Shown here one piece after another: positions 5,929 through 16,825 of a DNA stretch of 32,000 nucleotides. Numbering within the stretch: the first letter of the stretch is position 1; every line of letters starts with the position of its first letter. A program made the position numbers and the translations under genes. This DNA comes from Edaphobacter aggregans (GTDB lineage: Bacteria > Acidobacteriota > Terriglobia > Terriglobales > Acidobacteriaceae). The DNA lies in the NCBI RefSeq assembly GCF_003945235.1, contig NZ_RSDW01000001.1, positions 1,050,001 to 1,082,000 of the forward strand, given 5' to 3'. The notes under the pieces are model-generated. The model ran no database searches, was not told where the DNA came from, and worked only from the letters and a program-made list of their open reading frames with translations.

Positions 5929-6471
5929 TCAGGCTGGCGAATCGACTAGTCTGCGCCCCTTAAGACCCATCATGAGGCGAGTGAGACCTGTCAGAAGCAT
6001 GCTGATGCCCACCAAGGTCCCCAAAGCCCAGAGAGAACTGACGGGCCAATGCTTCCATATCATCACGCCGAGGAGGAGAGTTACGATTCCGTGCAGCAGC
6101 AGCCATTCGGAGCCAACACTCTTGCGGGACCAAATAAAAGTGCCGATATCCGTAATGCCTTCTATGAAGAAAAAGACGGCAAGCATGAGGGTGAGACCGG
6201 CAAGTCCGATCAAGGGATGCACCAACAAGTACCCTCCGACAAAGATGTACAGAACGGAGACCAGAAGCTTCCAAATTTTGCTTCCGACACCTTCAGACTT
6301 GAAGGCATACACGAGCTGGATAATGCCCTCGAAGAGAATGAGCCATGAAAGCACCCTGGCGACTCCGATTGAGGCGAGCGCCGGCAAACTGATTGCGAGT
6401 ATTCCGAGGACTATGAGAAGAATCGCAAACCAGACGGATGATTTATAACTTTGCCGGGGCTCCGCACTCAT
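5929..6471 (-). CDS. HdeD-family (DUF308) acid-resistance-type membrane protein
   Basis: 180 aa with six hydrophobic segments and the family-typical start W..ILLIVLGILAI..P......V.....ILF.GI..L..AF. Confidence 0.7.
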   Translation of the reverse strand: MSAEPRQSYKSSVWFAILLIVLGILAISLPALASIGVARVLSWLILFEGIIQLVYAFKSEGVGSKIWKLLVSVLYIFVGGYLLVHPLIGLAGLTLMLAVFFFIEGITDIGTFIWSRKSVGSEWLLLHGIVTLLLGVMIWKHWPVSSLWALGTLVGISMLLTGLTRLMMGLKGRRLVDSPA

Positions 6472-6508
6472 ATCGATGTGTCTCCTGCTGGTATTTATGT
6501 CGACGTGT

Positions 6509-7108
6509 TTACCGGCTCGGTAGTGACGCTGGTTGCTGCAAGCGGAATTCGAGCAATGTGCCGGCAGGAATATTGATCTGCTCTCCTCTCGAAATCAGAG
6601 AACTCGCGCCTCCCCCAGCAGCACCGATCGCCGCTCCACGCCCTGCGTTTCCTCCGATCGCACCGATCACCGCCCCAAGACCAGCTCCGCCTGCGGTGCG
6701 CCGTGCTGTACCGCCGAGGGCATTGGCTCCCTGAACGCTATAGTCGTTGCTGAGAATCGGAAAGCGTGTGTTGTTGATTACAATGTCAGTTAGCTCCAGC
6801 GACAGTTCCGATCTCCCGGCTGCGCGTCCAGCGCCTGACGATTGAATGATTCGACCGTGAACCACGGCTCCAGCCGGGGCGGCAACAGTATTTCCAGACA
6901 TGACATTTGTCTCGAGGCGACCGGTAAACAAAGTACCGGCACGATTCCTGCCCGAGCCAATCGAATCCGTCATACGGATCAAGAGCCGTGTTCCGGCTGG
7001 AACCGATATCATTCCTTGTTGTGCCCTTGCCGATGTGATCGCCGCAGCGCACAAAAATATCAGAAGTGTGGCTAGCGAGCTTTTACGGAATTGCAATAAC
7101 TTTTTCAT
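6509..7108 (-). CDS. secreted protein with beta-rich N-domain and C-terminal glycine-zipper
   Basis: Signal peptide MKKLLQFRKSSLATLLIFLCAAAITSARAQ. Repeated P-A-G-T/A blocks (ISVPAGTRLLIRM, VAAPAGAVVHGRI, INIPAGTLLEF). Glycine zipper GGAGLGAVIGAIGGNAGRGAAIGAAGGGA. Confidence 0.6.
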   Translation of the reverse strand: MKKLLQFRKSSLATLLIFLCAAAITSARAQQGMISVPAGTRLLIRMTDSIGSGRNRAGTLFTGRLETNVMSGNTVAAPAGAVVHGRIIQSSGAGRAAGRSELSLELTDIVINNTRFPILSNDYSVQGANALGGTARRTAGGAGLGAVIGAIGGNAGRGAAIGAAGGGASSLISRGEQINIPAGTLLEFRLQQPASLPSR

Positions 7109-7158
7109 CTCTCAAATCCTTCCTGCCTTAGCGTGGCTGTGGGTTAATCCCGTTTCGA

Positions 7159-7668
7159 TCACGATTGATTTGCGGGCAGCTTTGAAGCAACTTGAAGATC
7201 GTAGATGTGCTGCAGCTGGCTATCGACTTCGAAGAATTTAGTGGCGATTTCTGCGGACAGGGCCTTCTTCATGGTGTCGTAATACTTCTTCCGCAGTTCG
7301 GCACGCTGTGTTTCTAGCTCAAGCGACTTACTCATCACTTGATCGGCCGCATCATCGGAAATGCTCGGATAATCCTTGGCGTAATCGCTCATTAGTTGAG
7401 CCTCGGCGTCATCCAACTTCGCCCGCTCCGCTTCATAGTCCTTGTAAATCGGCCAAAATGTTTGGGAATCTGCGTCGCTAAGGTGCATGATCTCCTTGAC
7501 GAGCATCTCCCTCTTCGCATTGACGTCCATCCTGAGGAGCTTCTCGTATGCCTGGAGATTGAGTTCCTTATCGCTAGTCGTCTTCGGATCTTTCGCAAAA
7601 GTAGACTGTGTTGCCAGAAACGGCAAAGCGACGACGCAGACTAATAGGGTTCCTTTGATTGTTTTCAT
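7159..7668 (-). CDS. secreted all-helical hypothetical protein
   Basis: Signal peptide MKTIKGTLLVCVVALPFLATQSTFA. The remainder is charged and helical (E/K/D/A/L rich). I recognise no family. Confidence 0.5.
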   Translation of the reverse strand: MKTIKGTLLVCVVALPFLATQSTFAKDPKTTSDKELNLQAYEKLLRMDVNAKREMLVKEIMHLSDADSQTFWPIYKDYEAERAKLDDAEAQLMSDYAKDYPSISDDAADQVMSKSLELETQRAELRKKYYDTMKKALSAEIATKFFEVDSQLQHIYDLQVASKLPANQS

Positions 7669-7782: not shown

Positions 7783-8772
7783 TCATCTTTCCCCCGCCGC
7801 CGGCACCCATCCGCTATCAGCGGATATCAACTCCACGCCGGCTACGCTGGTGCTTATGTTGAATGATCGCAAACCAGCCCGCCTATCGGGTCGGGCTCCA
7901 AACTCCAGGAGAAACTGGTTATCGAGGCTATTTTGTAGACGATCCAGAAATGGTCTGAAACTGACCGGAGCCTGGAGTCCGAGGAAGAAAGCTTCACCGC
8001 CGGTCCGATCTGACAACTGTGCCATAGCATTCTGTCCGTTGGTTGCTTCCCAGAAGTTTCGATGCATGTGTCCAACCCCAGGGGTGTATAGCCCATAGAT
8101 GATGGTTCCTGTCCGTTGGGCAATATTGGCTGTGGTAGTCACGTCGGGAATAGTGTTGAGACCGCGAGTGGGTGTTGTACGTCTGGCCCGATCGATTCCG
8201 TCCGTGATCATAACCAGTGCCCGACGGTTCGCATGTTGAGGCCAACGATTCATCAGGTCGTTCGCAGAAAGATAGGGACTGCCGAACGCTCCCGCATTAC
8301 GCAAAGGCAATCGCAGGGCGTTGGCCGCCAGAGCATGATCCGTTGTAAAGTTCTGGGCGATTTGCACCGTGGCATTCCGCATATAGCCAACACCGACTGA
8401 CGTAGATGGCGGCTGAGCGTTGATAAAGGCGCGTAGGTCGTTGAGCTGAGACCCCAAGCTCGTGTCGGAAGCGTCATCGATCAGGATAAAAAGATCGAGT
8501 CCGGCTGCCGCTCCGCGCGCAGGCACCCATTTGGTGACGCGCAGTGTCTCTCGGCGCTGCCTCACGCTCACATCATTCTGGCTTACAGTAGGCGCGCTCC
8601 CATCACTCAAACCGGATGCGGTTACGGTCATTCGCACAGGGACTGTAGGCCCAGCTGCCTCTTGCTGTGCAGTTTCCTGCGCGCGCGCCGCAAAAACGGT
8701 CGCAAATATCAAAATGAAAAGAGTAAGAACCTCACGTCTGATACGGTACTGTTTCATCCGATCCTCCTTCAT
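7783..8772 (-). CDS. secreted von Willebrand factor A (VWA) domain protein, Acidobacteria-type
   Basis: Signal peptide ...LTLFILIFATVFAARAQ. MIDAS-like LFILIDDASDTS and a later VMITDGIDR. An alternative start at 8757 (MKQYRI) has the better RBS (AAGGAGG). Confidence 0.75.
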   Translation of the reverse strand: MKEDRMKQYRIRREVLTLFILIFATVFAARAQETAQQEAAGPTVPVRMTVTASGLSDGSAPTVSQNDVSVRQRRETLRVTKWVPARGAAAGLDLFILIDDASDTSLGSQLNDLRAFINAQPPSTSVGVGYMRNATVQIAQNFTTDHALAANALRLPLRNAGAFGSPYLSANDLMNRWPQHANRRALVMITDGIDRARRTTPTRGLNTIPDVTTTANIAQRTGTIIYGLYTPGVGHMHRNFWEATNGQNAMAQLSDRTGGEAFFLGLQAPVSFRPFLDRLQNSLDNQFLLEFGARPDRRAGLRSFNISTSVAGVELISADSGWVPAAGER

Positions 8773-8897: not shown

Positions 8898-8944
8898 ACT
8901 ATAAAAACCTTTGTTAGATAGGGCAATTGGACCTTAGTCCAATC
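8898..8944 (-). promoter_or_regulatory. operator-plus-promoter upstream of the VWA gene
   Basis: Minus strand reads GATTGGACTAAGGTCCAATTGC (8944-8923, palindrome ATTGGAC-N4-GTCCAAT). It overlaps a -35 TTGCCC (8926-8921), followed by a 17-nt spacer and a -10 TATAGT (8903-8898). The 22-mer is identical to 14536-14557. Confidence 0.6.
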
Positions 8945-8950
8945 GGCGAT

Positions 8951-10918
8951 TCAGGCGTACGCAAAAAGCTCACGTGCCACTGCCAACGGCAGTTCCACCC
9001 TGAAAACAGACCCTCCTTCAGGTCGATTATCGAAGGTAATACGGCCTCCGAGAGAGTCAAGGATAGAACGGCAGATCGACAGTCCCATGCCGAGGCCTTC
9101 ACTCTTAGTCGTGAAGAAAGGCATAAACAATTTCATCTTGTCCTTTTCGGCGATGCCCGGACCATTGTCTTCCACAAGGATGATTCCACAGTTTGCGTCC
9201 GTCCCCATGCACGTCGTCACAGTGAGGACTCTTCCCTCTTGCGGTATATTTCGCATAGCGTCCATGCCATTGTTGATCAGATTCAAAATGACCTGTTGCA
9301 ATGGAATTTCATCACCCAGCACCTTCGGTACGGCGTCTGAAAGTATCAAGCGAAGCTCGACACCACGAAGGAGCGCATCTTTCCGCACAAGTCGGCTTAC
9401 ACCAGTTGCGATCTCATTGAGGTCTACCTCGTGACGAGCGATCGTTTGCTTCTTGAAGAGTGCCCGCATGTTCTCCAATACTGCCCGTGCCCGCTTATCA
9501 TCCTCTCGAATGTCGGCCAACGCTGCTCGGATTTCCAGCATGTCGGGCGAAGGCCTGGTGGCAAGACGTTCGGCTGCTTGCGCGTTCCCGAGGATCGCAG
9601 CCAATGGCTGGGCTAGTTCGTGCGCAAGTGAGGCAGCCATATGACCCATCGACGCTACACGGTTTAGATGAGAGATCTCTTCCAGTGCCAGTTGGCGTTC
9701 CAAAAGCTGCTGTGCCTTGGTCCTTCGTTTGATCAGCCAGATCAATAGAAATACTAGCGCCGTCTCAGCAACTAAGAAACCGAGCAAAGCGATAATTCTA
9801 TATTTGTATTTTTCCCAATCCGTCGGCTGCCGAAACAGGATCGTAGATTCGGGTGGAATCTTCGACTCCGAAATATCCCAGCGTCGTAGTTGCCGTGCGT
9901 CGAAGATGAATCCATTGGTGCCCACTACGGCAGGTATATCCTGCGGTTTCTCACCGCTCAGAATTCTGGATGCAATTTTGCCCGCCTCCCGGCCCTGGCC
10001 TGCAAAACTACTCACATAGCCGCCAACCGCTCCATGACCTATAAGAGTGTCAAACAGAACAAAGATCGGGGCATTGGCCACACTCGTTAGCATCTCGAGT
10101 GACGTAGCTCTTGGAAAATAAGTTTCGGCTGCATCTCGTTCGAGTGCGGTGTACAAGACGATCGTGTCACTGGGCAGGCGCTTCAGTCGCTCAATGAGCG
10201 CGGGCATGGCGAGGTCAGTGAGGTAGGTTATTTCAAGTTGAGATTCGTAGGTGGTGAGACTCTTTTTGACAGCGGCCTCAAGCTCTCTGTCATACAAGCC
10301 TGTGCCACCAACCACAACGACGTGTCTGGTAGTTGGAAGCAAACGCAGAGCCACGTCCAAAGTTCTTTCTGGCTGCCTGTTTAGCCAAACCCCTGTAAAG
10401 GAAGGGCCAAACTGCGGATTGCCTGCTTCCTCTTTTGTCGCGCCGCTGAAAACCACCGGAGTGTTTTTGAAGTAGGTTTCATGTGCCTCAACCATGAACT
10501 GAATCGGCGATGGCCCGGCAGCGATAATTAGATCGAGTTTGCGATCTTTATATTTGCGAATATAGGTTTCGCGGATCTGCTGTTGTGAAGCCTCATCTGG
10601 AAATAGACTCGTTTCCATCGACTCGGTATAGAGTTCAACCAGATAGGGTGATTCTTCATCCAGAGTGGCACGCAACTGAGGGTCAATCAAACGGAATGCG
10701 AGCGCCGAGGGCCCTGTCTCATAGATAATGAGGATCTTACGGACGCCATGCGCGGCTGTCGCTGCGGTCAGTTGAATTGAAAAAGTAAACGCTAGAAGAA
10801 TGAACACCGTGGCTGCACGCCACCGGCGATCGCGCTTGTCGGCAGAGATGCGCGATAAGAAGTGCCGATAGACGAGTCGTTCAACGGCCGGTATTCGATT
10901 ATCCAGATGGCCGGCCAA
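8951..10918 (-). CDS. sensor histidine kinase with periplasmic ABC-substrate-binding-like sensor domain
   Basis: One N-terminal TM segment, then a periplasmic domain of about 300 aa of the ABC_sub_bind type (KILIIYETGP...VVVVGGTG...). A second TM segment (IIALLGFLVAETALVFLLIWLI) follows, then H-box SLAHELAQPLAAI and HATPase boxes NLINNGMDA, DNGPGI and GLGMGLSI. The listed start is TTG and the true start is uncertain. Confidence 0.85.
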   Translation of the reverse strand: MAGHLDNRIPAVERLVYRHFLSRISADKRDRRWRAATVFILLAFTFSIQLTAATAAHGVRKILIIYETGPSALAFRLIDPQLRATLDEESPYLVELYTESMETSLFPDEASQQQIRETYIRKYKDRKLDLIIAAGPSPIQFMVEAHETYFKNTPVVFSGATKEEAGNPQFGPSFTGVWLNRQPERTLDVALRLLPTTRHVVVVGGTGLYDRELEAAVKKSLTTYESQLEITYLTDLAMPALIERLKRLPSDTIVLYTALERDAAETYFPRATSLEMLTSVANAPIFVLFDTLIGHGAVGGYVSSFAGQGREAGKIASRILSGEKPQDIPAVVGTNGFIFDARQLRRWDISESKIPPESTILFRQPTDWEKYKYRIIALLGFLVAETALVFLLIWLIKRRTKAQQLLERQLALEEISHLNRVASMGHMAASLAHELAQPLAAILGNAQAAERLATRPSPDMLEIRAALADIREDDKRARAVLENMRALFKKQTIARHEVDLNEIATGVSRLVRKDALLRGVELRLILSDAVPKVLGDEIPLQQVILNLINNGMDAMRNIPQEGRVLTVTTCMGTDANCGIILVEDNGPGIAEKDKMKLFMPFFTTKSEGLGMGLSICRSILDSLGGRITFDNRPEGGSVFRVELPLAVARELFAYA

Positions 10919-11087
10919 CGATGCACCTCCGACCCGCTTCGTAATTCGATTACAGACCTAGCAATGTCCACTGACACATACAACAAAATCAACAAGATAC
11001 GACGTCAACGATCTTTTGTAACCGACTGCAGGATTGTACTTATGAAGATTCTCTTCCTGAAGAAAAGGTTGCCTTTGCGCGCGCTCT

Positions 11088-11795
11088 TCATCCTGCTCTG
11101 AGGTAGAGAAGCAACTCGGCGTGTTCTAACGTAACCGGACAACATTTATTGTGAGCGTCACTATCCTTCGGAGATAGGTGGTGTCGAATTGCGAAGCGAA
11201 CGAGATCGGAATTAGTCTTCAGGTCAAACTCTTCCATGATGCGGTATTTGTGAAAGCTACGGTTCGCACAGCGATGATTAAGGACTGCCGCCACCTCTTT
11301 CATAGAGTGTCCTTCGGCTAAGAGCCGTAACACCTGTCTCTGACGTTGCGTAAGCTCTTTGGTGCGATCATGATGGGGGTCACGGACAAACTCATTCATC
11401 AATTTCTGCGCGATACTTTGGTGTCACATAGGTTCGTCCACCCAAAACTTCTCCTATAGCTCCATACCGGCGGATTTCTTCAAAAGATATCCAGACGACC
11501 AATGGCGCAAAGCCATAGAAGCAACGTCGGGGTCCTCATTCATCGTGAGAACGATAAGCTTGGTTTTGGGTAAGAGCTTTTTCAACTGCTGTCCAGCATC
11601 GAGTCCATTGAGCAATGGCATGGCATACTAAGATCCAACAAAAACAATATCGAGTTTCATCTCCAACGCAACTGAAAGCATGCTTCGACCATCCGACACC
11701 ATTTCGACAACGTGGCAATCAGGCTCGAGCAGGCTCTTGAACGCCTCGGCAACCATTGTGTGGTCATCTGCGATCAGAATTCTTGGCCTGTCCAT
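11088..11795 (-). pseudogene. degraded NarL/LuxR-type response regulator (premature stops plus frameshifts)
   Basis: The ATG at 11795 opens a receiver domain (MDRPRILIADDHTMVAEAFKSLLEP...LDIVFV). It hits an in-frame TAG at 11630-11628, where the phospho-acceptor Asp block should be; DLSMP reads in another frame. The same frame resumes (MPLLNGLDAGQQLKKLLPKTKLIVLTMNEDPDVA..GYLLKKSAG) to a second TAG at 11456-11454. The linker AIGEVLGGRTYVTPK is in a second frame and the LuxR HTH (TQRQRQVLRLLAEGHSMKEVAAVL) is in a third (listed ORF 11088..11402). Confidence 0.7.
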
Positions 11796-12185
11796 TCGCC
11801 CCCGAACCCTGCTTTACTAGACATGTTGTCCTAAAGAACCAAGATGTGGCTGCCCTCAAGACCTCACGAGCTCTAGTCACTTGCATTTCATAGAGCCACA
11901 ATTATGGGCGTCCTAAATGGTTTTCTCATCTGCTAAATCTGACAGGATTCCCGGAGCATTCTCCAAGAGCTACCGTAGCAGACTGAATATGTCGTCCCAC
12001 TTCAGTAAACTACGTTTGCAGTTGGATACATCGTGATTTTCAAAAGCCTCACAAGGCGACACGCTTCGTGAAAATGCACAACTCTCGAGCCAATAGATAA
12101 GACAACAGGATTCGAGAAATTATCCAGTATTCCAGCAAACACCGCTATCTTGAAACTGATCCACAATTTTTTTAGGAGGTGCTGC

Positions 12186-13307
12186 GTGCCAGGAGTGGAC
12201 TCAATATCTCTTCGCCTTCGCGAACCATACAGGCTGGTAGGAGTTTACAGAGTTCGCTTTATGAGCTCGTGCTTGGGCCTATTACTCTGTACTTGCCTCT
12301 GGGGTGTCTTTATGCCCGAAGTGTACGGGTCCACTCGCTTGAAGACCGATGTTGTCTACATGAAAAATGGAGACAAAATCACGTGTGAGATCCGTTCGCT
12401 CGAGCAAGGACAATTGACGATCAAACAGGAATATGCCAATTCCACAGTGGCCCTTGATTGGGAGAAAGTTGATCGAATCGAGACGCAGCAGCCATTCGTG
12501 GTAGCTGACACCCGAGGCAATGCCTTCAACGGAATTCTCTCAGAGAAAACTGATCAGAGTTTCCTTACCATCGTTGGAAGCACCACGGGCAAAATCTCAC
12601 ACGATGAGGTGGTCAGTATTCAGCAGACAGGAGAGACTTTTGTTCGACGACTGAAGGGATCGATCGACCTGGGGCTTGACTTTGCTCAATCGAACTCCCA
12701 AAAGAACCTGACACTACAGTCCGATCTCACCTACCAGGCCACGAGACAGTTCTTTGCAGTCACATCCAGTTCTCAGTTCACAAGTCAACAGGAGACCAAC
12801 AATACCAGTGAAACGACGGTCAAGAGTGAGTATTTTCACCAGCTTCGCAAGTCAAACTGGTACGGAGGAGGAATCGCAAACTTTCTTTCAAGCTCGGAGC
12901 AGCAGATCAGTTTACGTTCTACATTCGGGGGAGCCCTTGCGATCCGGCCTGTTTACACGAACAAGACGAATCTTTCGCTCATTGGTGCTCTCGCCTATAC
13001 CTCTGAGAAAGATGCATCGAATGCCACATCGACAGCAAGTACTCAGGCGCTCGACTCTGCTGTTGCGGTCCAATTTTCAACGTTCCGGTTCGACTCAACA
13101 AACTTTGCTACAACTGTGTGGATTTATCCGAGCCTGACTTCCCCAGGTCGGGTACGTATGACCATAAATCAGGACGTATATTACAAGTTCTACAAAGATT
13201 TCTATGTTCGTGCGAGCTTCTACAGTAACTACGATAACCGCCCCGTAGTAGGAGCTCCTTCGAATAACCTGGGTGCATCTTCGACAGTCGGATGGTCTTT
13301 TCGGTAA
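12186..13307 (+). CDS. DUF481-like outer-membrane beta-barrel protein
   Basis: The long ORF begins with a signal-like segment (SSCLGLLLCTCLWGVF) and an N-terminal VVYMKNGDKITCEIRSLEQGQLTI module. The remainder has alternating beta-strand character and is rich in S/T/N/Y/F, ending ...VGWSFR. The GTG at 12186 lies 6 nt after AGGAGG (12174-12179). Alternative starts are 12150 (TTG) and 12261 (ATG). Confidence 0.65.
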   Translation: MPGVDSISLRLREPYRLVGVYRVRFMSSCLGLLLCTCLWGVFMPEVYGSTRLKTDVVYMKNGDKITCEIRSLEQGQLTIKQEYANSTVALDWEKVDRIETQQPFVVADTRGNAFNGILSEKTDQSFLTIVGSTTGKISHDEVVSIQQTGETFVRRLKGSIDLGLDFAQSNSQKNLTLQSDLTYQATRQFFAVTSSSQFTSQQETNNTSETTVKSEYFHQLRKSNWYGGGIANFLSSSEQQISLRSTFGGALAIRPVYTNKTNLSLIGALAYTSEKDASNATSTASTQALDSAVAVQFSTFRFDSTNFATTVWIYPSLTSPGRVRMTINQDVYYKFYKDFYVRASFYSNYDNRPVVGAPSNNLGASSTVGWSFR

Positions 13308-13324
13308 AGCTCCAGACTTGTCTT

Positions 13325-13951
13325 TTACAACGACGGCAGATGGCCGCAAGCGCGCAAGCGTTCAACTAGTCGGACGATGTCAGTAACAGACTGTGCACCT
13401 AGCTTCTGCATGACCCTGCCACGCTGCACCTTGATCGTCTTTTCTGCCGTACCGAATTCACCGCCAATTTGCTTGTTCAGCATGCCTTGCGCCACGCGCA
13501 CACATACCTCCCGCTCTCTCAGAGTCAAGGTTTCGAAGACCGCGCGATCGCGGCCGAGCGTATCGAGACGAACACAGGCTTGTCGCGACCTGGCGAGCGC
13601 TGCATCCACGGCAGCAAGCAGTTGACTCGCATCGAAGGGCTTCGTGAGAAAGTCGACAGCGCCCGCTTTCATGGCGCGAACAGAGTCGGGGATATTAGCG
13701 TGACCACTGATGAAAACAATCGACATGCTTTCATGTGCTCGCGTTAGCACTTGCTGCAAATCGAGTCCGCTCATCTCAGGCATCTGAAGATCGAGGACGA
13801 CACATGCTGGGTCGGAATCGAGTTGCTGCCCCAGGAACTCTCGAGCGGAAGGATAGGTTCGGACCTGTCTACCGTGCGAGCGAAGAAGTCGCTCCACCGC
13901 ACAACGAACACTCAAGTCGTCGTCGATAACGTGAACTGTACCTTCTGTCAT
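13325..13951 (-). CDS. FixJ/NarL-family response regulator (receiver + LuxR-type HTH)
   Basis: Receiver motifs VHVIDDD, CVVLDLQMPEMSG and FLTKP. C-terminal HTH LTLREREVCVRVAQGMLNKQIGGEFGTAEKTIKVQRGRVMQKLG. Confidence 0.9.
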   Translation of the reverse strand: MTEGTVHVIDDDLSVRCAVERLLRSHGRQVRTYPSAREFLGQQLDSDPACVVLDLQMPEMSGLDLQQVLTRAHESMSIVFISGHANIPDSVRAMKAGAVDFLTKPFDASQLLAAVDAALARSRQACVRLDTLGRDRAVFETLTLREREVCVRVAQGMLNKQIGGEFGTAEKTIKVQRGRVMQKLGAQSVTDIVRLVERLRACGHLPSL

Positions 13952-14041: not shown

Positions 14042-14419
14042 CTATGTGATCACCTTGTTGATTAATGAAATCAATTGATTTTCATCTACGGGCTTTCTCA
14101 AGTAGGGGCTATCACCGATTCGGACACTCCAATCGGCGAAGTCGGACTCAGAGTGTGCGGTGACAAAAAGATGCGGAATCGGCGAGCCTAGTTCAATCAG
14201 GCGATCCCTCAGTTCAAAGCCATTCATCTCTGGAAGTTCAATATCAAGAATGAGGCAATGTATCTGCAACAGTTCGGGATCAGCTAATGCAGCTTCCGCG
14301 GATTCGTACGTGACACACTCAGAGCCACGAGCCCGGAACAAGCGGCTCATAGCTTTGCGTACAGAAAGGTCATCATCGACCAATCCAATGCGCGTCGCAG
14401 TTGGAAGACAGTCGATCAT
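14042..14419 (-). CDS. stand-alone receiver-domain response regulator
   Basis: Motifs IGLVDDD, CLILDIELPEMNG and YLRKP, with no output domain. The ATG at 14419 is one codon inside the listed TTG start at 14422. Confidence 0.85.
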   Translation of the reverse strand: MIDCLPTATRIGLVDDDLSVRKAMSRLFRARGSECVTYESAEAALADPELLQIHCLILDIELPEMNGFELRDRLIELGSPIPHLFVTAHSESDFADWSVRIGDSPYLRKPVDENQLISLINKVIT

Positions 14420-14449
14420 CAATTATGTGCAGCTATGCCCAGAAGTAGA

Positions 14450-14485
14450 AATATACAACGAGTGATGAAATGTGCAATTGGCCCT
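14450..14485 (-). promoter_or_regulatory. candidate promoter of the regulator operon carrying a half-copy of the shared operator
   Basis: Minus strand reads GAAGGGCCAATTGCAC. The -35 TTGCAC is at 14477-14472, followed by a 16-nt spacer and a -10 TATATT (14455-14450), about 30 nt before the ATG at 14419. It shares CCAATTGCAC with the sortase promoter, but the distal palindrome arm is missing. Confidence 0.45.
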
Positions 14486-14535
14486 TCTGCTTACGCAGCC
14501 TTCTTTTTTGTAGGGACTTCGTATCGACCGTCGAT

Positions 14536-14583
14536 GATTGGACTAAGGTCCAATTGCACCCCCTCCGAACGGGTTGTTATAGT
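14536..14583 (+). promoter_or_regulatory. operator-plus-promoter upstream of the sortase operon
   Basis: GATTGGACTAAGGTCCAATTGC (14536-14557) overlaps a -35 TTGCAC (14554-14559), followed by an 18-nt spacer and a -10 TATAGT (14578-14583). A second TATAGT lies at 14595-14600. The leader to the ATG at 14718 is about 130 nt. Confidence 0.6.
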
Positions 14584-14717
14584 CCGTTTCGGCTTATAGT
14601 GTAAGAAACCCCGCGATTCGCTGGTCGCGAGTATAAGTGGACTTTCTAGCTCGATTTAGTCACTACAGGTGACAGCGCCGTCGGCGCCGTCAGCGGAAAG
14701 GCGGCGAAAGTTACGCG

Positions 14718-15413
14718 ATGAAGTCTTATCGGCGACTCGAACGTGTCTTGTTGATTGCGGGTTTGGCCTTGCTAATAGTAAGCATCGTTGTGCGACTCAA
14801 CGGGTTGGTGATGGCACGGGCCGGGGTCTGGAGTTTTGAAGCGCATCAATCGGAGTCGGCGGACTCTGCCGGCGGGAAGCCAGAGAATTCTTCGCTCGAT
14901 TTCAGCCTTTGGTCGGAGAAACGAGTCCGCGCATACAAGGCTGCTTTGGGGATGAAGTTTGATGCGCCGTTGGCAGTTCTCGCTATTCCAAGGATAGGAC
15001 TTGAAGTGCCTGTATTCGACGGAACTGACGATCTGATTCTCAACCGGGGAGCGGGCAGGATTACAGGAACAGCAAAGCCGGGTCAACCAGGAAATATCGG
15101 CATAGCCGCGCACCGCGATGGTTTCTTTCGCGGCCTGAAGGACATTCGCGTGGGGGATCGCATCGAACTTCGGACACAGGGTGATGCGGCCCTCTACGCA
15201 GTCGACGATATAGAGATCGTGCAGCCTACCGACGTAACCGTACTACGGAATCGTTCAAGCCCTTCACTCACTCTGGTGACTTGCTATCCGTTCTACTTCG
15301 TCGGGGATGCCCCGCAACGTTACATAGTCCATGCATCAATTGTGGATTCCGACAAAACCGCCGCGTCTAAATTCAATTCTGCAGTTCAGAAGGAAAAGGA
15401 GCATACACAATGA
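14718..15413 (+). CDS. sortase-family transpeptidase (N-terminal membrane anchor)
   Basis: TM anchor VLLIAGLALLIVSIVVRL. Catalytic His in IGIAAHRDGF (codon 15111-15113), Cys in TLVTCYPF (codon 15282-15284) and Arg in QRYIVHA. Confidence 0.85.
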   Translation: MKSYRRLERVLLIAGLALLIVSIVVRLNGLVMARAGVWSFEAHQSESADSAGGKPENSSLDFSLWSEKRVRAYKAALGMKFDAPLAVLAIPRIGLEVPVFDGTDDLILNRGAGRITGTAKPGQPGNIGIAAHRDGFFRGLKDIRVGDRIELRTQGDAALYAVDDIEIVQPTDVTVLRNRSSPSLTLVTCYPFYFVGDAPQRYIVHASIVDSDKTAASKFNSAVQKEKEHTQ

Positions 15414-16201
15414 ACTTAAAAAATAGCTGGGCACATATTGGGCCGGTGCTTGCGGTGGGGACTCTTTGCGTAGTCCTCACTCCTAGCATAAGCGCTCAGG
15501 TACAAACGGAAACCGAAACCACCCATGGAAAGGCTACGCATGATGTACAGGTCGAGCGCGGCGAGGTCGTCATGGTGTCGGGCAATGACCTTATCGTAAA
15601 GAAGGATGATGGTCAGATTGTGCACATTCCCAATGTCCCGGAAAGCGCCCGGGTCAATGTGGATGGAAAGCAGCTTAGTGTTCACGAGTTGCAACCGGGC
15701 ATGAAGTTGCAACGCACAATCACGACGACAACGACTCCCCAAACCGTTACGACAACGCAAAACGTAACAGGAACCGTATGGCACGTCACCCCTCCAACCA
15801 GTGTGATCCTCCGGTTGGAAGATGGTACCAACCAGCAGTTCACTATCCCCAGGGGTCAGAAGTTCATGATCAATGGGCGGGAGACTGATGCTCGGGACTT
15901 GAGAAGGGGCATGACGATTACAGCTACCAGAATCGTCGAGGAGCCAATGACGGTGGTCACGCATCAGAGGGAAGTGACGGGCACGATGCCGCCGCCTCCA
16001 CCTGCTCCCCCTGCAAACACTCCGATCCTGATCGTTGTGTCGCGACCGACACCAGCACCTGCAGCCGCTGCCGAGGCTGAGGCGCCGGCCAAGTTGCCTA
16101 AGACTGGATCGATTGTGCCTTCCATCGGGCTCCTGGGGATCGTGTTCCTGGGCGCGTCGTTTGGTTTGACGATGTTCCGGAAGTTACGCGCTGTGGCTTA
16201 G
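15410..16201 (+). CDS. secreted LPKTG-motif protein (predicted sortase substrate)
   Basis: Signal peptide ...LCVVLTPSISA/QV, then two related beta-rich modules, a Thr-rich linker and a Pro/Ala-rich spacer. The C-terminal sorting signal is LPKTG (16094-16108), 23 hydrophobic residues, then RKLRAVA. ATGA overlap with the sortase stop. Confidence 0.85.
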   Translation: MNLKNSWAHIGPVLAVGTLCVVLTPSISAQVQTETETTHGKATHDVQVERGEVVMVSGNDLIVKKDDGQIVHIPNVPESARVNVDGKQLSVHELQPGMKLQRTITTTTTPQTVTTTQNVTGTVWHVTPPTSVILRLEDGTNQQFTIPRGQKFMINGRETDARDLRRGMTITATRIVEEPMTVVTHQREVTGTMPPPPPAPPANTPILIVVSRPTPAPAAAAEAEAPAKLPKTGSIVPSIGLLGIVFLGASFGLTMFRKLRAVA

Positions 16202-16261
16202 GAAGTATATGGCCCTCTGGTAAGTACGGTGGGCCGTTCTTCTCTTCTCAGTTAGAAGTTA

Positions 16262-16298
16262 TTTGACCCTTCCGTCCGCAATGGATGGAAGGGTCAAA
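16262..16298 (+). terminator. strong stem-loop after the sortase operon (no U-tract)
   Basis: TTTGACCCTTCC (16262-16273), a 13-nt loop, then GGAAGGGTCAAA (16287-16298) form a perfect 12-bp stem. No T-run follows on either strand, so intrinsic-terminator function is uncertain. Confidence 0.35.
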
Positions 16299-16403
16299 CA
16301 GCGTACCTTCATGGGAGCTTTAAGTCTCATTCTCTTATTCCCATTGGAGATTGAAAGACGTTTCGTGGGTGAAGCGTTGGTCGCTTTGAGAAGGGAAATA
16401 CCG

Positions 16404-16825
16404 TTGAAATTCAAACTTCGTCCATCATTAGTACTTACGGTGCTCCTGGTTGGGCTTTGTCAGACGATCTTCGCGCAAGACTTCGACTTAGCAGCACCAG
16501 GCGCGGTGCCTCCTCCTACCTTGGCCACCGGCGGCGCTGCCACGCTATTTCAGAATGTCCGCATCTTCGACGGTAATAAGTGCCACGCTCTCAGCTCCCT
16601 CCAACGTGCTGGTTAGAAACCACGTCATTGAACTCATATCTGTAAGTCCGATTCATTAATCCTTATCCCGGCAAACTGGGTGTCGTCGAAGAGGGCGCAC
16701 TTGCAGATTTGATGTTGATCGATGGCAATCCCTTGGAAAACATCAAGCTCATCGAAGATCCTGGCAAAAACTTATTGGTCATCATGAAGGATGGCACGAT
16801 CAACAAAAATACGCTGCCTCGGTGA
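16404..16825 (+). pseudogene. amidohydrolase remnant (frameshifted and internally deleted)
   Basis: A TTG at 16404 after AAGGGA opens a signal peptide and N-terminus (KFKLRPSLVLTVLLVGLCQTIFAQ...LFQNVRIFDGN). The next conserved stretch PSNVLVRNHVIELIS is in the +1 frame from about 16597, with a stop at 16657-16659. The extreme C-terminus PGKLGVVEEGALADLMLIDGNPLENIKLIEDPGKNLLVIMKDGTI is in a third frame (16661-16825). The roughly 300-codon catalytic core is absent. Confidence 0.7.

Follow-up and report, generated by a model that had tools for sequence, protein, structure and literature searches.

The sortase locus of Edaphobacter aggregans (Acidobacteriaceae) raises the question of why the promoters of two divergent operons carry the same palindrome over their -35 elements, and which protein might read it. 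In the window, by which we mean the whole stretch of 32,000 nucleotides analysed here, the 22-mer GATTGGACTAAGGTCCAATTGC was found exactly twice, once ahead of the sortase gene (box A) and once ahead of the gene for a VWA-like protein (box B; table 1). No extra copy was detected in the 32-kb window when up to three mismatches were allowed, and relaxed scans of the window returned only the two full boxes and a third, half-degenerate one. There were no matches in 100 dinucleotide-preserving shuffles of the window, so an exact duplicate of this length is not expected by chance. A preliminary description of this DNA had put the expectation for a shared 22-mer near 1e-4, and its arithmetic is correct. 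It had also read the inverted repeat ATTGGAC-N4-GTCCAAT within the 22-mer, placed the second copy in the same orientation to its downstream gene as the first, and seen the palindrome fused to a promoter (TTGCAC and, 18 nt later, TATAGT at site A); the sequence bears out all of this, and the fusion to a -35/-10 pair holds at both loci.

With its two half-sites at a spacing that suits an HTH dimer, the box forms an inverted repeat of about 18-20 bp, as class-II operators of GerE-HTH regulators do. It dictates both -35 hexamers, which agree with TTGACA at four (TTGCAC) and three (TTGCCC) of six positions. The promoter at site B was also found independently by a consensus promoter scan. Among the explanations that we weighed, the one we consider probable, if well short of certain, is that the 22-mer serves as the operator of the REC-GerE response regulator encoded in the same cassette, as an activator site of the class-II type.

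Table 1. Features of the window discussed in the text, in window coordinates
Feature	Positions	Strand	Remarks
Box A	14536-14557	+	GATTGGACTAAGGTCCAATTGC; kept in L001-L006, L097, L111
Palindrome of box A	14537-14554	+	
Core of box A, GGACT-AA-GGTCC	14540-14551	+	
Predicted -35, sortase-operon promoter	14554-14559	+	TTGCAC; box A ends with its TTG(C)
Predicted -10, sortase-operon promoter	14578-14583	+	TATAGT; 18-nt spacer; invariant in L001-L005, L097, L111
Sortase leader	14584-14717	+	about 130 nt before the sortase gene; conserved; three predicted hairpins
Sortase	14718-15413	+	Pfam Sortase, 9.5e-30; nearest NCBIfam model class D, 138.5 bits against a cut-off of 140
Secreted 263-aa protein	15410-16201	+	C-terminal LPKTG, hydrophobic segment, RKLR
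Box C, degenerate copy	14475-14494	-	GTAAGCAGAAGGGCCAATTG; 14/20 to consensus; same register to its -35
Predicted receiver/regulator-operon promoter	14450-14477	-	TTGCAC (14477-14472), 16 nt, TATATT (14455-14450)
Stand-alone receiver (REC only)	14042-14422	-	first gene divergent from sortase
REC + GerE response regulator	13325-13951	-	FixJ/StyR subfamily; recognition helix AEKTIKVQRGRVMQKL; proposed box binder
Sensor histidine kinase	8951-10918	-	periplasmic ABC_sub_bind, HisKA, HATPase_c
Box B	8923-8944	-	identical 22-mer; kept in L001-L003, L005, L006, L034, L076, L101
Predicted -35, VWA-operon promoter	8921-8926	-	TTGCCC
Predicted -10, VWA-operon promoter	8898-8903	-	TATAGT; 17-nt spacer
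Secreted VWA-like protein	7783-8772	-	first gene downstream of box B; acidobact_VWFA 48.9 bits, weak, below cut-off
Three genes after the VWA gene	5929-7668	-	conserved order
169-aa protein	7159-7668	-	
199-aa protein	6509-7108	-	
180-aa protein	5929-6471	-	orthologues in relatives carry DUF308

The genes on either side of the boxes form a cassette. Homologues of its proteins carry names from Edaphobacter and Silvibacterium, which puts the window in Acidobacteriaceae. The preliminary gene calls for the sortase and for the FixJ-type (REC + GerE) regulator were upheld by domain searches. The regulator gene does lie divergent from the sortase gene, as had been described, but not immediately so: the stand-alone receiver gene comes first, and the REC-GerE gene is second in that operon. 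From its C-terminal features, the secreted 263-aa protein is likely the dedicated substrate of the sortase; an LPXTG-protein gene is always paired with the sortase gene in eight related contigs (L001-L008), and an MFS transporter gene is the third plus-strand gene after site A. The VWA-like protein of the window has no sorting signal. The core of the kinase is FixL-like, and in relatives its gene adjoins the regulator gene (directly in L001-L005).

Two stretches of the window have a different gene content from its relatives. Positions 10919-13324, 2.4 kb between the kinase and regulator genes, have no counterpart in L001-L006. One ORF of this insertion (11088-11402, minus strand) is GerE-only and 104 aa long; its recognition helix is aberrant, and it may be what is left of a response regulator. 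A second ORF, OMP-like and 385 aa long (12150-13307), has WSFR at its end, and L104 has both a full regulator and an OMP gene of 48% identity beside its own cassette. On the other side, at 16202-16790, the amidohydrolase gene of L001-L006 is missing, and the gap holds only a 117-aa ORF (16263-16616) with no family match.

The conservation of the box was investigated in the Acidobacteriaceae contigs L001-L006, which encode sortases 94, 84, 81, 76 and 65% identical to that of the window. Their gene order is DUF308, two small genes, VWA, kinase, REC-GerE and REC, and divergently sortase, LPXTG protein, amidohydrolase and often MFS; the REC-GerE regulator is present in the cassette of all six. We found GGAC-N4-GTCC at both box positions in each of them, while the neighbouring and intervening DNA has diverged, which agrees with the earlier reading of the 22-mer as a regulator site. 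The relatives share the consensus ATWGGAC-YAAR-GTCCWAT-TG with TATAGT at a distance of 17-18 nt, and in the most distant relative, L006, the -10 is TAGAGT or TACAGT instead. In L006 the kinase gene is absent from its position and box B still stands upstream of the VWA gene; thus box B is part of the VWA promoter rather than of the kinase gene's 3' end. Two further Terriglobales contigs (L007 and L008), with sortases 57-60% identical, have a sortase-substrate pair with neither two-component genes nor the box, so the regulation of the pair appears to have been rewired there. In these two contigs the sortase/LPXTG pair (L007 9392-11509, L008 9384-11496) lies within a cluster of DUF1269, DUF308, peptidase M48 and peptidase M50 genes, and in L008 genes for sigma-54 activators are found at the edge of the locus.

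The preliminary description had proposed a pattern search for the motif. We scanned reference genomes, one genome per species, with the 20-mer pattern ATWGGACYAARGTCCWATTG (16 fixed and four two-fold positions), which demands TTG at its 3' end, so that promoter-fused copies alone could be found. At least 120 stretches matched, against about 17 expected by chance by our own arithmetic (596 Gb, both strands). The box is not restricted to this locus or to one phylum: the matches listed come from Paraburkholderia, Caballeronia, Cupriavidus, Verrucomicrobia, Desulfobacterales and other delta-proteobacteria, Alphaproteobacteria (Rhizomicrobium, Dongiaceae), Tepidisphaeraceae, Aminicenantes, Coatesbacteria, Omnitrophota, Rokubacteria and various Acidobacteriota. 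Among the matches listed there are one to four boxes per genome, several genomes having two to four unlinked ones, and three cassette-bearing Acidobacteriaceae genomes are represented by exactly their two cassette sites. Caballeronia glathei DSM 50014 has at least three boxes among these matches. The gene most commonly found directly downstream of the listed boxes encodes a stand-alone receiver (at least 15 cases), followed by Ysc84/SYLF (at least nine members by Pfam), DUF3300, HlyD, DUF2092, MIP, patatin, OmpA, DUF883, Gly-zipper proteins and others; in Acidobacteriaceae, the sortase and VWA genes take this place. In two Aminicenantes stretches (L015 5308-5688, L019 3216-3596), homologues of the 169-aa protein of the window (33-39% identity) are encoded shortly downstream of a box, and this small secreted protein may have belonged to the regulon for a long time. 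Some boxes of Paraburkholderia (L027, L061, L065) are fully symmetric including their flanks (TGCAATTGGACCAAGGTCCAATTGCA) and could serve promoters in both directions.

Could the 22-mer be an element that no regulator reads, such as a dispersed repeat of the REP or MITE kind, a hairpin or terminator in the RNA behind the kinase gene, or a -35 read by an alternative sigma factor? The motif is present in many genomes, and the RNA of site B, where the box starts 6 nt past the kinase stop codon, folds into a 9-bp hairpin just past that codon (-13.4 kcal/mol, with a modest z of -2.1). However, this hairpin has no U-tract behind it and is missing from the output of the terminator scan, and site A does not lie behind a gene; an intrinsic terminator was rejected on these grounds. 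A dispersed repeat was rejected as well. The likeness between the copies stops at the 22-mer, the -10 excepted, there are two full copies in the 32-kb window with the -10 in a fixed register, and the copy number per genome among the matches listed is far from the hundreds of unrelated sites that the preliminary description had named as its counter-case. A sigma factor would have no need of the upstream half of the palindrome, which is as conserved as the half at the -35, and the -10 is sigma-70-like; the -35 of an alternative sigma factor was accordingly rejected. We regard a non-regulator element of any of these kinds as extremely improbable.

The position of the box relative to the promoter was examined in 116 distinct instances among the matches listed, the Acidobacteriaceae cassette loci being left out. 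When these instances were aligned on the box, A stood at +41 in 84 of 116 and T at +45 in 76 of 116, and in 29 of 116 TAnnnT followed TTGnnn at a 17-nt spacer, where the background rate is 0.75% per position. With all listed instances aligned, the -10 signal appeared at one fixed distance from the box and nowhere else, and the geometry of TTG-N3, 17 nt and TAnnnT was seen across 116-132 boxes among the matches listed. The activator-box geometry suggested for site A in the preliminary description thus recurs at a fixed 17-nt spacing outside the Acidobacteriaceae cassettes. If transcription starts about 7 nt past the -10, the centre of the palindrome would lie near -43.5, or near -44.5 at site A with its 18-nt spacer; we infer the start sites from the -10 hexamers alone, and the centre likewise. 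On these predicted starts the arrangement agrees with a class-II site, centred near -41.5 to -43.5 over a weak -35 of the sigma-70 type.

The same geometry bears on the sign of regulation. If the sign were the opposite, the same regulator would sit on the same site as a dimer that blocks RNA polymerase at the -35 and represses the sortase and VWA promoters until a signal frees them. The box does overlap the -35 hexamer, and LuxR-type proteins including EL222 can repress from sites within the core promoter (PMC5001607). However, the repressing EL222 box lay between the -35 and the -10, whereas an EL222 box that replaced the lux box over the -35 of PluxI activated transcription in Escherichia coli (PMC5001607). 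At hspX, DosR activates from a box centred at -43.5 that covers a suboptimal -35 and is combined with a good -10, and it does so through contacts with sigma region 4 and alpha (PMC13486717, PMC3177182). Poor, box-dictated -35 hexamers such as those at sites A and B are typical of activator-dependent promoters, and a constant centre and spacing across phyla are expected if contacts with the polymerase matter. Repression is in our judgement unlikely.

Which protein, then, binds the box? In tblastn searches with the window proteins, at least 36 of the 120 listed 8-kb tiles carried a full-length homologue of the REC-GerE regulator, an underestimate because the tiles are fixed 8-kb blocks. Outside Acidobacteriaceae these homologues near boxes showed 43-54% identity, and a kinase and a stand-alone receiver were usually encoded alongside. 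A candidate cognate GerE-HTH regulator is thus encoded nearby or co-inherited with the box, and the link that had been proposed between the box and the neighbouring FixJ-type regulator extends across phyla. About two thirds of the listed tiles had no regulator gene within 8 kb, which fits unlinked members of a regulon; such tiles are expected on this reading and are not proof of it.

The regulators linked to boxes share the HTH motif LNKQ...EKTxK.hR.RVM.K, in which EKT.K is kept in at least 90% of the sequences. For the whole protein of the window, the closest solved structures are StyR (1yio, E = 5e-48) and FixJ (5xso, E = 1e-32), and for the HTH domain alone they are StyR, then EL222, then FixJ, with DosR further down. 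The recognition helix reads EVTVK in StyR and PRTVE in FixJ; it reads EKTIKV in the window regulator and EKTVK in EL222. We take the DosR helix to be EKTVKN, a sequence whose numbering fits K179, K182 and N183. The LuxR/FixJ-type reading of the preliminary description is consistent with these comparisons, since the helix of the window regulator matches those HTH proteins whose sites share the GGAC-N4-GTCC core.

Another GerE-type protein might instead bind the box, either the GerE-only ORF of the insertion or a paralogue elsewhere in the genome, and the neighbouring regulator would then be unrelated to it. Soil bacteria encode many NarL/FixJ-type regulators, the GerE-only ORF is a second GerE-domain gene in the same locus, and in the window the 2.4-kb insertion parts the kinase from the regulator. 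Yet that insertion is absent from L001-L006, all of which keep both boxes, and the helix of the GerE-only ORF, HRCANRSFHKYR, shares nothing with EKTxK; for its unrelated helix and the missing insertion in relatives, this ORF was rejected as the binder. Moreover, it is a REC-GerE protein with EKTxK that travels with the box across phyla. A binder other than the cassette's own regulator seems to us decidedly unlikely.

The third box of the window lies ahead of the signalling genes themselves. Where none is expected, the window contains three matches to AARGNCCAATTGC, the third at 14474-14486 on the minus strand, and all three CCAATTG heptamers of the window are located at the three box promoters. 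In box C the right, promoter-proximal half-site (GGGCC) is intact and the left, distal half is weak, and the block containing it upstream of the stand-alone receiver is kept in L001-L006. We infer from these features that box C is a weaker site on the signalling operon itself, which suggests autoregulation of, or feedback on, that operon. In other phyla the stand-alone receiver gene very often has a full box ahead of it, and an ancestral feedback loop is therefore suggested.

The leader between the sortase promoter and the sortase gene is strongly conserved in seven relatives, with one hairpin right at the predicted 5' end, and CTTA/TAAG is swapped for CTCA/TGAG in some of them. It may be stabilising or regulatory. 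RNAalifold predicted hairpins in the leader but only two compensatory pairs, too few for a structured RNA to be claimed. Rfam gave no match in the whole window at gathering thresholds and none for 14400-14800 at E up to 1; thus the box and the leader are not a known RNA element. No tRNAs were found in the window.

If the cassette's own regulator is the binder and an activator, the following scheme can be proposed. The kinase would phosphorylate the REC-GerE regulator, and a dimer of the regulator would bind the half-sites GGACY and RGTCC. The centre of the bound dimer would lie about 43.5-44.5 bp upstream of the predicted start, over a -35 that is presumably kept poor on purpose (TTGCAC or TTGCCC), and from there the dimer would recruit RNA polymerase of the sigma-70 type in a class-II manner, like that of a lux box or Dev box. 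Activation would turn on the two divergent surface-protein operons, that of the sortase and its LPKTG substrate and that of the VWA-like protein, and the weaker box C upstream of the stand-alone receiver would provide feedback on the receiver/regulator operon.

A LuxR/NarL-type dimer over the -35 is a textbook mechanism. In the literature on the motif, on the target families together with two-component systems, on FixJ motifs in Burkholderia and on sortase regulation in Acidobacteria, we found no description of the box, of its pairing with an EKTxK-type regulator of the FixJ family, of its spread over many phyla or of such a control of an acidobacterial sortase system. The kind of element is well known, and this box and its pairing with the regulator across phyla appear to be undescribed. 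Going further, we tentatively suggest, as a serious possibility held with some doubt, that an ancient, undescribed regulon is defined by the box ATTGGAC-YAAR-GTCCAAT-TG on the -35 together with a trio of signalling genes, with envelope targets, self-feedback and recruitment of the sortase genes in Acidobacteriaceae. This reading draws on exact-pattern matching and on the matches listed (at least 120). A trio of sensor kinase, EKTxK-type FixJ-family regulator and stand-alone receiver is plausible, and so is a range that includes Acidobacteriota, Burkholderiaceae, Verrucomicrobiota, Desulfobacterota, Alphaproteobacteria, Planctomycetota, Aminicenantes and others. It is also plausible that the targets vary and are mostly secreted or envelope proteins (Ysc84/SYLF, DUF3300, DUF2092, DUF883, Gly-zipper, OmpA, patatin), that feedback runs through the receiver gene, and that in Acidobacteriaceae the system was recruited to a diderm sortase system.

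The proposal provides a concrete pair of regulator and operator for Acidobacteriaceae, soil bacteria that are dominant yet genetically poorly understood, and it ties a two-component system to a rare diderm sortase/LPXTG system and to an operon for a VWA surface protein. Because the same box and regulator occur in the tractable genera Paraburkholderia and Caballeronia, the regulon and its signal could be solved there and then transferred. A regulon worked out in such hosts would offer a first way into the function of several widespread domains that lack an assigned one.

Several known systems resemble parts of this one. The penL system of B. thailandensis was considered as a precedent for the box and rejected, since its cis element differs. 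The dedicated sortase system of Proteobacteria (TIGR03784/03787) likewise places a diderm sortase next to a single substrate, with a VWA protein close by and a two-component system dedicated to it. However, its sortase is of class GN and its LPXTG target contains the VWA domain, whereas the substrate in the window is a separate 263-aa protein; the window sortase reaches 79.5 bits against the class GN cut-off of 158, being nearer class D, and the receiver reaches 33 bits against the marine_sort_RR cut-off of 336. At the level of the site, the ACTU motif of CrbR (ErdR) in Gammaproteobacteria is needed by this LuxR-family response regulator for activation of acetate-utilisation genes, and its core, GAC-YAAR-GTC, is related to that of the box, one instance of the motif being CTTGACCAAGGTCGATT (PMC5715377). 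It differs in lacking the GG/CC of GGAC/GTCC and the ATT/AAT flanks, and its kinase (CrbS) and targets are other ones.

The StyR/FixJ/TtrR subfamily provides the best overall sequence match to the window regulator and the same domain architecture. The score against the FixJ equivalog model (NF006900) is 176.2 bits, below the cut-off of 255, and the window kinase differs in sensing through a periplasmic ABC_sub_bind domain. Because the recognition helices of StyR and FixJ differ from that of the window regulator, different DNA sites are expected for them.

DosR (DevR) of Mycobacterium tuberculosis has the same two helix lysines as the window regulator (EKTVKN, as we take the DosR sequence to read, against EKTIKV). 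The window regulator is not a DosR orthologue: only the HTH matches, with E about 3e-4, the overall identity to the DosR sequence that we assume is 26%, StyR and FixJ are much closer, and the target genes are unrelated. The Dev box of DosR shares the palindrome GGAC(T)-WW-(A)GTCC with the window box, the predicted centre of which, near -43.5, is as at hspX. In contrast, the outer G of the Dev half-site (GGGACT) is T in the window box (TTGGAC), the flanks are ATT/AAT instead of TTS/SAA, and the G4G5G6A7C8T9 half-site within a 20-bp palindrome was not found in the box. DosR reads GGGACT/TGTCCC via K179, K182 and N183 (PMC13486717), and Dev boxes act in tandem pairs or more (PMC3177182), whereas the promoters of the window and its relatives have one box each.

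The closest parallel for the site itself is EL222 of Erythrobacter litoralis. EL222 binds two RGNCY half-sites that are two A/T pairs apart (Rivera-Cancel 2012, as cited in the review PMC4428443). This 12-bp rule, RGNCY-WW-RGNCY, is fitted exactly by GGACT-AA-GGTCC, GGACC-AA-GGTCC and GGACT-AA-AGTCC, which are all the variants seen, and it also accounts for the conservation of the YAAR "spacer" of the box. The inputs differ, EL222 being driven by light through a LOV domain and the window regulator through a phospho-receiver, and the window box, which nature has joined to the -35, has extra conserved flanks (ATT...AAT). Even so, the recognition helices of the two proteins, SEKTVKMHRGLVMEKL in EL222 and AEKTIKVQRGRVMQKL in the window regulator, are nearly identical.
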